Assembly: GCA_964523525.1 (NCBI GenBank)
Contig: CAZFYO010000001.1
Span: 65,068-129,067, forward strand
Direction: 5' to 3'
Length of the DNA: 64,000 nucleotides
Source: an uncultured Elusimicrobia bacterium
Lineage (GTDB): Bacteria > Elusimicrobiota > Elusimicrobia > 2-02-FULL-39-32
Every line of letters begins with the position of its first letter. Within the stretch, counting starts at the first letter, position 1. A program made the position numbers and the translations under genes. The notes beneath the pieces are model-generated. The model was not told where the DNA came from, made no database searches, and was given only the letters and a program-made list of their open reading frames with translations. Below, one piece after another: positions 22,742 through 55,700 of the stretch.

Positions 22742-23557
22742 ATGAAACCACCCGCAACGCCCGCAAATCTCCGTCGAGTCCTGCTCGCCTGCCTCCGCGA
22801 AAGCGGCAGCATCCTCAAGAGGGGCTTCCGAACCACGTCGTTCAAGATCCACATGAAAGGCCCCGTGAATCCCGTCACGGATATCGATTTCGCCGCCGAG
22901 AAGAAGATTTTTTCGATCCTCAAAATGAACTTTCCGGACCACGGAATCCTGAGCGAAGAGTCGCCGCCCCAAAAAGGGCGGTCCGAATACCGCTGGATCA
23001 TCGACCCCCTGGATGGCACCATCAATTTTGCCCACGGCCTGCCGATGTCGTCGGTTTCCATCGGCCTGGAAAAGGGCGGGAAGATGCTGATGGGCGGCAT
23101 TTACAACCCGATGCTGGGCGAGCTCTTTTTGGGCGAGCGGGGAAAGGGCGCAACGTTGAACGGTCAAAGGATCCGCGTTTCAAAACAGACGAAGCTCATC
23201 AGCAGCCTGCTCGTGACCGGGTTCCCTTATGACCGCCAGAAGCATGGCCAATACTATCTGAAATTTGTGGGGGCGATGCTGAAGCATTGCATGGGCCTCC
23301 GCCGGCTGGGTTCGGCGGCGCTCGATCTGGCTTATGTGGCCTGCGGCCGGTTTGAAGCCTTTTGGGAGTTCAACCTCCAGCCCTGGGACGTGGCGGCCGG
23401 CATGCTGATTGTGGAAGAGGCTGGGGGAAAGGTGACCGATATGCGTGGTAATTTAATTGCTAGCGGAAAGTCGACCGAACTCCTATCGTCCAATGGGGGG
23501 GTCCATGCCCAGATTTTGGCAAAATTCCGCCCCTGGTTAAAAAAATATAATAGCTGA
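22742..23557 (+). CDS. suhB: Inositol monophosphatase family protein
   Basis: EESPP..., WIIDPLDGTINFAHGLP and WDVAAG motifs. Confidence 0.85.
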   Translation: MKPPATPANLRRVLLACLRESGSILKRGFRTTSFKIHMKGPVNPVTDIDFAAEKKIFSILKMNFPDHGILSEESPPQKGRSEYRWIIDPLDGTINFAHGLPMSSVSIGLEKGGKMLMGGIYNPMLGELFLGERGKGATLNGQRIRVSKQTKLISSLLVTGFPYDRQKHGQYYLKFVGAMLKHCMGLRRLGSAALDLAYVACGRFEAFWEFNLQPWDVAAGMLIVEEAGGKVTDMRGNLIASGKSTELLSSNGGVHAQILAKFRPWLKKYNS

Positions 23558-23558
23558 T

Positions 23559-23581
23559 AAATCATATCAAATATATGATTT
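23559..23581. repeat. AT-only 9-bp inverted repeat immediately after the suhB stop
   Basis: AAATCATAT (23559-23567), loop CAAAT, ATATGATTT (23573-23581). It could be a weak terminator or a protein-binding site. Confidence 0.4.
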
Positions 23582-23615
23582 TCCGAAAAATGTAACCCTG
23601 TGCCGGTAGGGGGGG

Positions 23616-23644
23616 TTGACAAAAGGGGGCATCCCTGTTAAAGT
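23616..23644 (+). promoter_or_regulatory. Near-consensus sigma70-type promoter
   Basis: TTGACA (23616-23621), a 17-nt spacer, then TAAAGT (23639-23644), in a region with no credible ORF. Confidence 0.5.
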
Positions 23645-23650
23645 TGCTAA

Positions 23651-23768
23651 GTCTGAAGGAACTGCAGATTCCTCCAGATAAAGTTCGGGGGCTTTCAATC
23701 TTCTTGCATTGGTTTGGCGTTTCTTCGGGAAGCCACTGAACTTGTACAGTTCGAGTGGTTTTTTTTAT
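23651..23768 (+). ncRNA. Candidate small RNA (~120 nt) bounded by a promoter and an intrinsic terminator
   Basis: Lies downstream of the promoter above. Contains a cUUCGg-type hairpin (TTTC-TTCG-GGAA, 23720-23731). Ends in the hairpin CCACTGAAC / GTTCGAGTGG (23733-23758) followed by a run of eight T, then ATTTT (23759-23770). The family is not recognised. Confidence 0.4.
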
Positions 23769-23775
23769 TTTGGAG

Positions 23776-24167
23776 GAGGAACTGAAAGCCCCGCCCCCAA
23801 AGACCCTCGAAGAAGCGAATAAGGCAGCGAAAAGCAGCGACGCTCTTTCACTGACTCGATAAAGGCAAATCCCTTCCCGCCCCAGCAGTTTGGCGGGATG
23901 GCACCTCTCGGAAATTCGTAAGGGGGGTGACGGGAAACCGTGAGACGCAAAGCCCCTGCTCAAGAAGCAGGGCCCCGGCACGAGGCCGGGGTACGGGACT
24001 AACCTCCGCAAACACGTCGCGGGGTAAGTTGGCTGGGTTGCCGAAGTACATGATCCCTCTCGCAAGAAGGGTGTCCAAGGGCGGCAGGCCCAAGGACGAC
24101 CGCTCGTACGCGATGGACTGATACCCAAGCAACCGACTCCCGTAGTTCCAGTGAGTTGGTTTTTTTA
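23776..24167 (+). ncRNA. Candidate ~390-nt structured RNA or leader upstream of the 24197 operon; possible c-di-GMP-I (GEMM-I)-like core
   Basis: No credible ORF. Has GNRA-capped hairpins (ACGG-GAAA-CCGT 23930-23941; a GCAA-capped hairpin at 24055-24071). Has GC-rich hairpins (CCCTGCT-CAAGAA-GCAGGG 23954-23972; CCCCGGC-ACGAG-GCCGGGG 23973-23991). The 11-mer GACGCAAAGCC (23944-23954) matches, as I recall it, the conserved GEMM-I core, and GCGGGGT lies at 24019-24025. Ends with a weak hairpin plus a T-run (24160-24167) 30 nt before the ATG. Confidence 0.35.
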
Positions 24168-24196
24168 TTGCTCAAGGCGACTAAAAAAGGGGAGAT

Positions 24197-24592
24197 ATGA
24201 ACAAGAAGACGAGCCATCGTTGGATTGTACTATTCGCCGCCGTCTTATCGACGGGGTTCCTTTTTGCCGTGGGGGAAACGCCCACCCTCATCGATGAGGT
24301 CGTGAACTACCCCAATCCCTTTGACAGCCGCCGCGAGGACACCACGGTTTCCTATCGCCTCATCCAGGATCTGCCGGTCCGGGTCCGGATCTACGATTTG
24401 TTCGGCTACCAGGTCCGCGAACTGTACTTCCATTCGGGCTCTATCGGCGGGCAGACCGGCATCAATACGTTCCGCTGGGACGGGACCGACAGCGCGGGCC
24501 AGAAGGTATCCAAGGGCGGCTATATCTGCATGATCACGGTGGAAGGCGACCAGCCCACCCGCTCGATCCGTAAGATAGGAGTGGTCCATTAA
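24197..24592 (+). CDS. Small secreted protein consisting of a signal peptide plus one FlgD-Ig/T9SS-CTD-like beta-sandwich
   Basis: 131 aa with a signal peptide (WIVLFAAVLSTGFLFAVG). NYPNPFDS...VRVRIYDLFGYQVREL...FRWDGTDSAGQKVSKGGYICMITVEG matches the FlgD-Ig / Por-secretion-tail pattern. Good RBS (AAAGGGGAG). Confidence 0.7.
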   Translation: MNKKTSHRWIVLFAAVLSTGFLFAVGETPTLIDEVVNYPNPFDSRREDTTVSYRLIQDLPVRVRIYDLFGYQVRELYFHSGSIGGQTGINTFRWDGTDSAGQKVSKGGYICMITVEGDQPTRSIRKIGVVH

Positions 24593-51900: not shown

Positions 51901-52761
51901 ATGGGTGGAAAAATTAGGGGGCTTTTAACTTTAGGGCGCGAGAAATTTATTCCGCGTCCCTTTTTATTTTTAGGAGGCGACTTGAAACATTTTATTTTGG
52001 TGCTCTTAGGGGCATATACATTGATGCCAGGCATTGTTAAAGGGGTTGATATTTCTACCACAACCGCAAAGTTAGGGTGGGTAAGGTATGACGATAAAAT
52101 TGTTCTATATGATGCAAAGGGCAGCTCGATTAAAACTATAGAAACTAAAGAATATGATAAATCAGAAAAAGCAGAACATGGTGGTGGCGATGTTGTTGTT
52201 TATAGTTATCGAATTAGTGGTGATGTCTCCGAGTCTCATAAGTATGCATGGACCGTGACCGTAGAGGTAAATATGGTTGAAAGATGGCAGAAACAAATTT
52301 TTCGATACTTTGATGGTAGGGGGAATATGCTTTGGGAAAAAAATGGTGGGGCTCACGCCACAATTTCCGCCGATGGGGAAGTAGTACTATTATCTCATTG
52401 CGATCCCAATAGTTTAATGAATCTCACGGAGGGAAGCGAGGTGGCATATTGGGCAACGATATATTCAAGTAGTGGTGCTGAGTTGTGGAAATTTAGTGAA
52501 TTCTCTTTGAGGAATCCTGAAACAATATTTATTGAGAGAAACGGCCGATTTGGCTTTTTACGTAGTATGGTGCCAGAAAATAGAGTGATTTTTTTTGACA
52601 AACAAAAACAAAAAATATCTATATATAAAGGGTTTGGGAATGAAGTTTCAATAAATCATGAAGGATTCTTTTATGTTAAGAATCGAAAAAAAATCAGAGA
52701 CAAGTCAGGAAAAACTGTTCAAATAATTACCACTAAAGTTTTTGAGGGTAATTTTGACTAA
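51901..52761 (+). CDS. Hypothetical secreted protein (AT-rich block)
   Basis: ATG at 51901 with a strong RBS (AAGGAG, 7-nt spacer). Hydrophobic N-terminal segment HFILVLLGAYTLMPG. No family recognised. The ORF-track start at 51832 lacks an RBS. Confidence 0.55.
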   Translation: MGGKIRGLLTLGREKFIPRPFLFLGGDLKHFILVLLGAYTLMPGIVKGVDISTTTAKLGWVRYDDKIVLYDAKGSSIKTIETKEYDKSEKAEHGGGDVVVYSYRISGDVSESHKYAWTVTVEVNMVERWQKQIFRYFDGRGNMLWEKNGGAHATISADGEVVLLSHCDPNSLMNLTEGSEVAYWATIYSSSGAELWKFSEFSLRNPETIFIERNGRFGFLRSMVPENRVIFFDKQKQKISIYKGFGNEVSINHEGFFYVKNRKKIRDKSGKTVQIITTKVFEGNFD

Positions 52762-55700
52762 TAAATATTTGTTTTTCTTAGTTGTTCTAATTTCAAATAC
52801 GGCACTAGCTTACAGTTTAGACTCACCATTTCCTAACAGCCCAATAACCGATGACTTTGGTCCTAGAAGACTTGAAGGGGGGTTTAATTTTCATGGGGGT
52901 GTAGATTTTGGCGCTCCGTCTGGATCCTCGATCTATGTTGTTGAGTCGGGGACAATAACGGATATTACAGGATTCGGAAAGGATGCAAATGGAGGATATC
53001 GAATAAAGATAAAAGGTGACATTACAAACAGAAATATTTTTTATATGCATATGTTTACAGCTACGGGAACGGTTACACCTTCAAATCCTTTACGTCACGG
53101 AGACTTTCAAATTGAAAAATCAGGAGGATTGCTTAGAATACGTAGACTGTCCTTAAATGAGGTTTATGATGTTGACGACCATATCGATATGAACACTTTA
53201 ATTGGGCCTGTTGGAAATTCTGGCCAGGTGACGGGACCTCATTTGCACCTTCAAGTAGATGCGGGGACTGCTATCGATAACCCGTTTTTGTATGTAAATC
53301 ATCCGACCAGTGAGTTTTCTGTTACGATCAGTACTAACCTAGTTCATAAAACATCATATTCGCTTACTGATGCGCAGAAATTCAGTATACAGTTTGATAT
53401 TGACTCAAGTCCGGGTAATGACCTAGATGCTGTTAAGGTTCTAGTTGATAACAATGCACTATACTCACCGACCGATTCTTCGGGAACCTTTGCGTTTAAG
53501 TATGGTGGGAGACCTGGTGAATATCGAACATTAAGCTCTTCAATATCTGCTGGTGAGCTAGTAAATCTAAACTCCCAGCATCCATTTATGGGGATGTCTA
53601 ATTTTTCAGTCGTTGCGGTAGATAAAAATGTAAATCGGTTTACTTTGCGTGATGTTGACTTGTCAAGTTTTAGCTTATCAAACCACACTATTACGATATT
53701 GCCTTACAACGTTCTGGGCGTAGTTTCTGGGACAGCAACATACAATTTTTCGATATATGGCAATGAGTCTGATGAGGTTGTTGACAGTTCGGGAACAGCA
53801 AAACCAAATGGAAGCATTGTTTTAGACGGTTCAATTGGCATGAGCATTAATTGCTCATCTGCCGTATCATCGGTGCAGCTTGTCGGTGAAACAAATCAAG
53901 GGTTATTTTCTCAGACCACTCAGGCGACTTATTTTGGAGAATCATATTATGGGGTTCATTTTCCTACAAATACAGGCCAAACACTACCGCCAGGGACTTA
54001 CAGTATAAATTACGCGTGCGGATCGGAGAATAGAACATATAATTTCAGCGTTCAATCCCCAATTAGCACAAAAACAATAATATCTGGTTCAGGGGCGATG
54101 TCATTTGTTTCGAATATTCCCACATTTGTAGACGAATACTATTCTTCTCCGGATTTTTACATTGCGGGTTCGACATATATCAGAATATCGTATAGTTTTT
54201 TAACAACACGATTATCCAGTCCAACCCCAAATCCAAATAGTTGTGGTTTGTCTTGTTTTGGTGGAAGCACCAAGCCCAATGTTTACGTTAGACTATTTAA
54301 TTCTACATCGACAACATTGCCGCACTCCAGTTATTCCGATGCCCTAACGCAGTTTAATTGGTCAATCAAAAATATTAGCCCCTCTTCGTGCGCAGTGCCT
54401 GTAAACACGGAGATAATTCCCAACCCTGGGAATACCTATACTTGCACTGATGAGTATGAGTTTGCAAGTCCTGTCAATTTTATTGCCCGGCCATATTTTT
54501 TTCTAAGGGTTGAGGTTAACAATGGGGCATGCAGTGTTGTCCCACACGATTGTTCAATCGATCTTTCAAGTCCTGTGTGGACAACCGGAGTTTATTTAGG
54601 AGCAACGGCTATTACAGAAAATCATCGAATACTAATCGGCCCAAATGTAGGCGTTGGCACAGTAACCTCAATTACGCCTATAGGGCCTTATATTAGCATT
54701 ACACCTAGAGATGGTGTTAATTTGACATTTGCGCAGATTCAAAAAATTGGAATCACTAACGTAAACACGGGCACTTGGGCGAATATCATTGCGTGGATTA
54801 AGAGGTTATTGAATTTGGGTAGTAACGTGTACGAAATTTCGACAACAGCAGAATATTCTGGAGATATAACCCTGAAATTAAGATACGACCATACCCAAGT
54901 TTCCCCTTATGAGGAGCAATATCTAAGAATCGTTCAGTTCGATTCGGATGGAAATGCGGATGATATCACAGTTTCTATTGACACTGTCACAAAAGAAATA
55001 GTGGGTGTTACGACAGTTTTGGGCACATTTGGGATTGCTGTTCCGGAAGATTTAGGCCTACCCTCAGCCATTACTGACTTATCAATATCCCAGGTTACAA
55101 CAAGTAGCGTAACACTATGCTGGACCGCGCCTTCGGATGACGGCACGTTGGAATCAACGATCGCCTACGACCTGCGCTACGCCACTTTTCCCATCACGAC
55201 CTCCGATCAGTTTTTTGACGCAACGCCCGTGCCGGATATCTCGACCCCCAACACGCGCGGCACGCTCGAAACGTTTGTCGTTTCCGGGCTGGCGGGTTTA
55301 ACCACATACTATTTCGCTCTGATGTCCGCAGATGACGATGGTAATGTCGGTGCAGTGAGTAATAGCCCATCGACAAACACTCTTCTTGGTCCGCCACGGG
55401 CCTCAACAGGATTTTCTGGAACGGTACTGTCAACCATGGCGATCTTTTGGTCTTGGTCCGACAATTCCGGTACGGAAAGCGGATATCGCGTCGTGACTTC
55501 AAGCGGTGGTGTCATTTCGGGGGATCTCGCCGTCAATTCAACCATCTATGTGCAGTTGAATCTTTTGCCCAATGCGTCTCACCAAAACTATGTTCAGGCT
55601 TTTAATGCGGCAGGGGTGTCAAATTCAACAGAGTCGTTAAGCTGGACTCTCGCTAACCCTCCGACCGGAAGCGCATTGGTGGATGTGCAGGTGTCCAGTA

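Follow-up and report, generated by a model that had tools for sequence, protein, structure and literature searches.

An expanded c-di-GMP-I riboswitch aptamer in the conserved leader of a FliG-containing envelope operon from an uncultured Elusimicrobia bacterium

Relation to described riboswitches

Riboswitches of the c-di-GMP-I (GEMM-I) class, which respond to cyclic diguanylate (c-di-GMP), are collected in the Rfam family RF01051, a member of clan CL00126 together with RF03167. One of them, Cd1, located upstream of the flgB operon of Clostridioides difficile, has an aptamer of canonical size and is reportedly a transcription-terminating OFF switch, through which high c-di-GMP represses FliG-type rotor genes. 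The leader described here lies in a stretch of 64,000 nucleotides (nt) of DNA from an uncultured Elusimicrobia bacterium (assembly GCA_964523525.1, contig CAZFYO010000001.1, positions 65,068 to 129,067), referred to below as the window. Its spacer 23558-24196 precedes an operon with a gene for a FliG-like rotor protein and contains a c-di-GMP-I aptamer in an expanded form. While Cd1 precedes a true flagellar operon, Pfam searches with the genes of this operon found no flagellar gene besides the FliG-like one, and its OFF mode is a proposal.

The aptamer shares with Vc2 from Vibrio cholerae the two-hairpin core with its AAAGGCAAA...GACGCAAAGCC...GGGUUGCCGAA signature, the GAAA loop on P1, the CUAA receptor-type loop in P2, and the position in a 5' leader with a terminator platform. 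It also aligns at G20, A47 and C92, the residues that contact the ligand in Vc2 (PMC5888326, PMC6140456). Unlike Vc2, which has three or four helices in ~90 nt, it has seven helices in 194 nt, with hairpin pairs inserted at two structurally peripheral sites, in the P2 bulge and in P1b, the latter forming a four-way junction, and it scores below the Rfam gathering threshold.

Bc1 of the Bacillus cereus group is a class-I c-di-GMP leader with a long platform and two terminators, and thus, like the present leader, contains more than one intrinsic terminator (PMC11218506). Both terminators of Bc1 are reported to lie downstream of the aptamer, 28 bp apart, whereas here one lies upstream and one downstream (PMC11218506). 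A literature search found no paper linking Elusimicrobia with c-di-GMP riboswitches or describing four-way-junction GEMM-I variants; the element belongs to a known riboswitch class, and its expanded form is undescribed.

The aptamer and its fold

When the whole window was scanned with Rfam at gathering thresholds, only a tRNA was found. With E-value reporting on 23450-24300, RF01051 matched 23854-24045 (24.6 bits, E = 0.018) with all 87 model positions aligned and with a 70-nt insert at the P1 loop region and a 62-nt insert in P2. The low score is due to these two inserted hairpin pairs, which are placed in insert states. Neither 6S RNA nor c-di-GMP-II nor any other Rfam family matched in the spacer at E-values up to 10. 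A covariance model, R1, built from the leader of the congener G001 and the window sequence minus its 58-nt insert, scores the intact window at 147.2 bits and recovers all orthologues together with a paralogous group. GEMM-I-like matches to R1 are present in 85 of the 393 genomes of the class.

Three core blocks, AAAGGCAAA (23861-69), GACGCAAAGCC and GGG(U/C)UGCCGAA (24035-45), are all present in the window and are invariant in the orthologues of the family. The positions aligned to G20, A47 and C92 are occupied by G, A (in GCAAAGCC) and C, where the one-to-one numbering is drawn from the alignment. The GNRA loop of P1 is GAAA (23934-37) on a 4-bp distal stem, and the P2 internal loop of receptor type, CUAA(C)/UAA (23999-24003 and 24025-27), aligns to the consensus CUAAg. 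RF03167 (c-di-GMP-I-GGC) has G at the A47 position, giving GCGAAG instead of GCAAAG, while the window and its orthologues have GACGCAAAGCC; RF03167 outscores RF01051 in some loci only because its model includes the closing helix.

Apart from a hairpin pair, Ha and Hb, inserted throughout the family at the single-nucleotide bulge of the P2 5' strand, the fold shared by the orthologues is that of canonical GEMM-I aptamers. Thirteen expanded aptamers were aligned, the alignment being fitted to the structure of R1, and 95.5% of the cells were paired as against 27-48% in controls slid by one to three columns. Compensatory changes occur at 27 of 42 pairs, and the observed values were reached by none of 500 shuffles. 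By helix, they affect 6/6 pairs of P1b, 12/13 of Ha and Hb, 3/6 of P2b and 5/6 of distal P2. P1b, Ha, Hb and Hc were recovered as well when RNAalifold was run unguided on an ordinary MAFFT alignment. The layout shared by the orthologues, as read by eye, consists of the closing helix, GGC-AAA, a 6-bp P1b with a GAAA cap, and GAC-GC. It continues with AA-AGCC, Ha, Hb, (U)AC-RGGAC-UAA, Hc and YAA-GUY-GG-CYG-GGUU-GCCGAA.

One orthologue, L008:1378-1564 (G006:C17), carries an additional 47-nt expansion in the Ha loop, and Rfam gives it a shorter, 75-nt alternative alignment (1382-1456); inserts therefore mislead the standard model.

The original prediction had pointed to the 11-mer GACGCAAAGCC as the conserved core of a c-di-GMP-I aptamer, and this is indeed the true GEMM-I core, as seen from the end-to-end RF01051 alignment, the R1 score of 147 bits and the covariation. 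A second resemblance, of GCGGGGT (24019-24025) to the 3' strand of Vc2, proved coincidental: this segment is the 3' arm of Hc, and the real counterpart is GGCUGGGUUGCCGAA (24031-24045). The flanks could not then be folded canonically because four extra hairpins interrupt P1 and P2; the fold is canonical GEMM-I with inserted hairpins. Of the checks proposed at that stage, the Rfam search found RF01051, sub-threshold in the window and above threshold in the orthologue G002 (52.4 bits), and the covariation analysis, on the 13 expanded aptamers, supported the P1 and P2 helices. The class assignment, the fold and the link of the aptamer to the operon are thus established, and the element is very probably a genuine c-di-GMP-I riboswitch.

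The insert in P1

In a global alignment the window carries, inside P1, 58 nucleotides that G001 lacks. These form a genome-specific hairpin pair in the 5' strand of P1b, which interrupts this helix behind its first two pairs (U-A and C-G); the distal ACGG-GAAA-CCGU hairpin remains perfect. In the predicted fold (-25.9 kcal/mol, z = -1.9) the insert forms two hairpins that abut without unpaired ends, so that P1 becomes a four-way junction. It is not a dispersed repeat or miniature inverted-repeat transposable element, as no other copy exists in the genome or the family, and it is not an assembly artefact, as it is 100% identical in an independent Logan contig (run SRR16481187).

The class was scanned for GGCAAA-N40-90-GACGCAAAGCC and the matches were folded. 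The P1 layout, in which two to five proximal pairs are followed by two hairpins and then by a hairpin of 3-4 bp with a GNRA cap, recurs in at least eight further GEMM-I aptamers of the class. Three of these, from G032, G064 and G056 (all of family f5), are orthologous leaders of the same operon, and that of G032 has the P2 pair as well. A contig scan for GGCAAA-N45-75-GACGCAAAGCC was too loose; among the matches listed, 80 loci were searched and only 4 proved to be GEMM-I, each of them canonical. The P1 design of the window is thus recurrent and was gained independently in the lineage of this genome. As the same topology exists in other aptamers, the odds that the insert-bearing aptamer still works are raised, and the riboswitch of this genome is likely to be functional.

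Hairpins of the type CGCC-AGAAGUGU-GGCG, of nearly the same sequence, occur in the P2 pairs of two family f5 loci, L209 and L206 (G032 and G044), and in L209 also in the P1 pair, which hints at duplication or at a shared hairpin module. Hairpin 1 of the window insert (CCCGCC...GGCGGG) is only loosely similar to these.

Orthologous leaders and the operon

The spacer is structured and non-coding and is kept in at least nine related genomes. In a DNA search of the relatives the congener G001 proved to have the same spacer (77-80% identity), and other genera of the family share conserved islands of it; in the global alignment with G001 the promoter hexamers, the 5' module described below, the aptamer and the terminator are all conserved. 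Rfam scores of the orthologous leaders range from 41 to 52 bits. That of G002 is above the RF01051 threshold, and those of G001, G003 and G008 reach 41-44 bits against the clan member RF03167, below its own threshold of 59 bits.

The order inositol monophosphatase gene, leader, FlgD_ig gene and UPF0164-TPR gene is retained in seven of the eight orthologues of the family; G002 lacks the FlgD_ig gene, and its leader is followed by the UPF0164-TPR gene. Families f2, f4, f5, f10 and f17 have a GEMM-I aptamer, mostly of canonical size (~90 nt), directly before the UPF0164-TPR gene and usually after the FlgD_ig gene, and the link between riboswitch and operon is kept across at least six families. 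The leader holds a c-di-GMP-I riboswitch which most likely controls the FliG-containing envelope operon, in a direction that is discussed below as a proposal.

The first gene of the operon encodes a FlgD_ig-like protein of 131 amino acids. By Pfam, the further genes encode a UPF0164/TPR protein of outer-membrane type (a PorV-like/TPR barrel), a FliG_M/FliG_C-TPR protein (the FliG-like rotor protein), a TPR-tailed protein of 1660 amino acids and two proteins with no family match; giant coiled-coil proteins are also described for this operon.

Architecture of the leader

The spacer is a single 5' leader, predicted to be transcribed as one unit from a sigma-70-type promoter. This promoter has 10 of 12 consensus matches in addition to the TG extension, and its predicted transcription start is at ~23650-23652. 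Its hexamers are kept in nine orthologues as CCCTTGACAAAA and TG(T/G)TA(A/G)A(T/G)TT, and the sequence between them varies. One leader rather than two units is indicated because no promoter is found between T1 and the aptamer, either by consensus scan or by comparison of the orthologues, and because G002 and G010 have nothing but a short hairpin between promoter and aptamer.

In all nine orthologous leaders a hairpin with a U-run is found between the promoter and the aptamer. In G002 and G010 the short hairpin is all that takes the place of the 5' module, which in the window comprises S1, S2/T1 and S3. The segment GGGGCUUUC of S1, a sequence also given as CGGGGGCUUUCC/A, is invariant in eight orthologues. 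The T1 hairpin has an energy of -12.3 kcal/mol in the window and -10.4 to -14.5 kcal/mol across the orthologues, eight of which keep a U7-8 run directly after it. The pairing of S1 with S2 and the 5' arm of T1 (-15.8 to -21.6 kcal/mol) is stronger than T1 in every orthologue, and this duplex sequesters the 5' arm of T1. Downstream of T1, S3 is complementary to S1 over 9-10 bp in eight orthologues (-18.4 to -21.2 kcal/mol); the edge pair, A-U in both the window and G001, is C-G in the remaining orthologues. All these pairings were judged by per-sequence duplex energies, the MAFFT alignment being shifted by one column at T1 and S3.

The S1/T1/S3 signature occurs once in the genome. Covariance model R2 of the 5' module, built from two close sequences and too narrow, missed the window itself and gave no convincing copies elsewhere; its weak matches in other families were read as ordinary terminators. 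Taken together, S1, S2/T1 and S3 look like a second, leaky terminator with a built-in antiterminator, in which S3 would act as a later decoy. The small number of orthologues limits the interpretation of both this module and the expression platform.

The aptamer is followed by a variable, poorly conserved platform and by T2, a GC-rich hairpin directly followed by a U-run, as expected of an intrinsic terminator, 30 nt before the ATG at 24197. Eight orthologues keep its AACCGAC...GUCGGU stem and the following U6-7, and the window and G001 differ by G-U as against G-C pairs. An island GCAAC(C), 0-6 nt upstream of the 5' arm of T2 in 8/9 orthologues, is complementary to the aptamer GGUUGCC. In G003, G006, G009 and G011 an extended antiterminator duplex, reaching into the 5' arm of T2, has -24 to -26.5 kcal/mol (p <= 0.02 versus shuffles).

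In the proposed mechanism, the closing helix and P2a of the ligand-bound aptamer would hold the 3' strand GGGUUGCC and leave GCAACC free, T2 would form, and transcription would stop 30 nt before the operon. In the ligand-free leader GGUUGC would pair with GCAACC, the basal pairs of T2 would be removed and the operon would be transcribed. The leader is thus proposed, with some reserve, to be an OFF switch at high c-di-GMP.

The sequence features listed for this spacer in the original prediction were all found in place when checked directly. Its division into two units, each delimited by a promoter and a terminator, has to be abandoned, as both are parts of one leader with one promoter and two terminators. 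The attenuating layout, with a hairpin and T-run 30 nt before the ATG, holds in so far as T2 is confirmed and conserved, and the direction of switching is the proposed part. The suggestion of a variant c-di-GMP-I aptamer in an attenuating leader of the FliG operon is upheld by the above-threshold score of an orthologue, by covariation and by the synteny of riboswitch and operon conserved across families. The coordinates of the features are collected in Table 1.

Table 1. Features of the leader, with positions in the window
Feature	Position	Strand	Basis or remark
Sigma-70-type promoter	23616..23644	+	-35 TTGACA 23616-23621; 17-nt spacer; extended -10 TGnTAAAGT 23636-23644
5'-terminal stem-loop, UCUGAAGGAA-CUGCAG-AUUCCUCCAGA	23652..23678	+	sequence reading; minimum free energy (MFE) fold
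S1, invariant switch sequence GUUCGGGGGCUUUCAA	23683..23698	+	
cUUCGg	23723-23728	+	
S2, GGGAAGCC	23727-23734	+	overlaps foot of T1
T1, terminator-like hairpin	23732-23759	+	U8 run 23759-23766
S3, UGAAAGCCCC, second S1 partner downstream of T1	23783..23792	+	
CUCUUUCAC motif, directly 5' of aptamer	23843..23851	+	
c-di-GMP-I (GEMM-I) aptamer, seven-helix form, 194 nt	23854..24047	+	RF01051; model R1; covariation
Aptamer closing helix	23854-58 with 24042-47	+	
G20-equivalent	G23864		
Aptamer P1a	23865-66 with 23947-48	+	
Aptamer P1b, proximal	23870-71 with 23942-43	+	
Genome-specific 58-nt hairpin pair in P1b 5' strand	23872..23929	+	hairpin 1 23872-23901; hairpin 2 23902-23929
Aptamer P1b, distal, GAAA loop	23930-41	+	
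GACGCAAAGCC core	23944-54	+	
A47-equivalent	within AAA 23949-51		
Aptamer P2a	23951-54 with 24036-39	+	
Family-wide hairpin pair at bulge in P2 5' strand	23955..23991	+	Ha 23955-71; Hb 23973-91
Aptamer P2b	23994-99 with 24028-30 and 24033-35	+	
Distal P2 hairpin Hc	24004-24	+	
C92-equivalent	within GCC 24040-42		
Variable expression platform, GCAA-capped hairpin and GC-rich hairpin	24053..24128	+	MFE folds; poorly conserved
GCAACC, candidate antiterminator partner of aptamer GGUUGC (24036-24041)	24129..24134	+	overlaps three basal T2 pairs
T2 intrinsic terminator, ACCGACUC, 12-nt loop, GAGUUGGU	24132..24166	+	8-bp stem; U7 24160-24166; MFE folds
Ribosome-binding site AGGGGAG and ATG of first operon gene (FlgD_ig-like secreted protein, 131 amino acids)	24187..24199	+	

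Ligand and the paralogous riboswitch

The above-threshold GEMM-I match of this genome, at C3:191293-191411, belongs to a paralogous expanded aptamer (G000:C3:191289-191418, L001:1497-1626; 37.7 bits against RF01051), which G001 also possesses (L048). The paralogue has the P2 hairpin pair and its own TTGACAAAA promoter, and the U-run of its terminator abuts the ATG of a secreted protein of 175 amino acids. The residue aligned to G20 is A in this RNA (AAUAGCACAC...GGCCGC). An A at G20 is a signature of the GEMM-Ib RNAs, which bind cyclic GMP-AMP (cGAMP) or are bispecific (PMC6140456).

A at the G20 position (GAUAAUAGCAAAG...GGCGCAAAGC) is likewise seen at five loci of family f17 (L032, L035, L038, L042 and L047), where a riboswitch of canonical size, with its own promoter after the FlgD_ig gene, precedes the UPF0164-TPR gene. 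The ligand at this operon may differ between families.

Weighing of the interpretation

A conserved leader with an expanded c-di-GMP riboswitch that attenuates the FliG operon is the explanation that best fits the data, and we regard it as probable. Several observations speak against it. The aptamer of the window stays below the RF01051 gathering threshold (24.6 versus 35 bits), and its P1 insert is unique among the orthologues of the family, so that it might be a recent disabling event. The genome, with eight or nine genes for GGDEF proteins, gave no match to an EAL domain, HD-GYP not being included in that check; degradation of c-di-GMP presumably relies on HD-GYP or other enzymes. The antiterminator helix of the window has only 6 bp (24036-41 with 24129-34), and its extended duplex (-22.2 kcal/mol, p ~0.1) is, as in G001, not significant. 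MFE folds form T2 in both states, and therefore any switching must be kinetic. Finally, a simple terminator scan listed neither T1 nor T2, which were missed because of a bulge and the 12-nt loop.

The first two of these points would also fit an aptamer that was recently disabled in this genome, in which the insert breaks the docking of tetraloop and receptor or the pocket itself, so that the leader senses no c-di-GMP and the operon is constitutively on or off. The insert is indeed absent from the congener and the seven other orthologues of the family (eight in all), it brings the Rfam score below threshold, and its folding z-score is only -1.9. However, P1b is perfectly kept on both sides of it (UC/GA and ACGG-GAAA-CCGU), every invariant nucleotide of the core is intact, and the four-way junction recurs in the other GEMM-I aptamers described above, three of them orthologous leaders; a disabled copy is thus unlikely. 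Sensing of another cyclic dinucleotide, such as 3'3'-cGAMP, is a very remote prospect. GEMM-I relatives with altered specificity exist (PMC6140456), and the paralogue and the family f17 leaders have A at the G20 position, but the window and all family f1 orthologues of this leader have G there together with the canonical GACGCAAAGCC, and GGDEF genes are many in the genome.

For the 5' module, two readings other than a leaky terminator with an antiterminator were considered. The segment ~23651-23766 could be an independent small RNA of ~115 nt ending at T1, the riboswitch then being present only on read-through transcripts. Such an RNA would have a strong conserved promoter and a hairpin with U8, and S1, S2 and T1 are conserved in eight orthologues. 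Yet expression of the operon requires read-through of T1, as no second promoter lies between T1 and the aptamer, and the S1:S2 duplex, being stronger than T1 in every orthologue, favours read-through. Given also that G002 and G010 carry only the short hairpin, that the signature is single in the genome and that no Rfam family matches, a small RNA is improbable here. Somewhat more credible, if still short of an even chance, is a structural role, in which the module, closed by S1:S3, would be a protective or insulating 5' hairpin domain and would stabilise the mRNA or aid folding of the aptamer. A stable hairpin stands between promoter and aptamer in every orthologue, even in those that have no S1 and S3, the long-range S1:S3 helix (9-10 bp) encloses T1, and the module has no conserved core resembling a ligand pocket. 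Against this role, eight orthologues keep the U7-8 run right after the hairpin, and the overlap of S2 with the foot of T1 is the classic arrangement of antiterminator and terminator.

Implications

The locus is an example of a real riboswitch missed by threshold-based annotation, the cause being the insertion of hairpin pairs, and it should help to improve the GEMM-I model and to find more variants. Some orthologous leaders have the P1 and P2 pairs and others lack them, which provides a natural series on the tolerance or use of added peripheral helices by riboswitches. The conserved association ties c-di-GMP, across families, to an uncharacterised envelope operon with a FliG-like rotor, a PorV-like barrel and giant coiled coils, which gives a testable regulatory handle on this system and hints at a role in motility or at the cell surface.

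A more far-reaching picture can be drawn, which we consider doubtful. Abutting hairpin pairs would have been gained repeatedly at the same few structurally silent sites of the c-di-GMP-I aptamers of this phylum. The window would then show a very recent such gain, as its P1 pair is missing from the congener and yet occupies the same position in orthologous leaders of another family. The seven-helix aptamer would be a distinct, recurrent and hitherto undescribed sub-architecture with a role of its own, for example in bracing the tertiary structure or in tuning the kinetics of folding. The 5' module would be a second, independent sensor, and the leader would gate a non-flagellar FliG rotor system with two inputs.

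Other features of the spacer and window

The inositol-monophosphatase gene (22742-23557) precedes the spacer, and the first gene of the operon follows the spacer. The spacer is considered non-coding because its only long open reading frame (ORF) is an unconserved, low-complexity antisense frame of 188 amino acids (23562-24128, minus strand). This ORF was rejected as spurious: it has a low-complexity product, is split between frames in G001 and is not kept elsewhere. It spans nearly the whole leader and is listed as a called gene in the gene table of the Logan contig. A CTG-initiated upstream ORF of 27 codons (23783-23863) was rejected as well, its interior being frame-shifted relative to G001 and the ORF being absent elsewhere.

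G001 shares the 5'-terminal stem-loop, G006 and L181 have it in another form, and G003, G009 and G011 lack it. Nearly all orthologues examined keep the motif that directly precedes the aptamer, as (G)NUCUUU(C/G)A(C/A), and so does the paralogous riboswitch (L001:1478-1486); no pairing partner was identified for this motif.

At ~52000-55000 of the window the GC content falls to 0.38-0.40, compared with ~0.58 elsewhere in the window, and this stretch may be acquired DNA.

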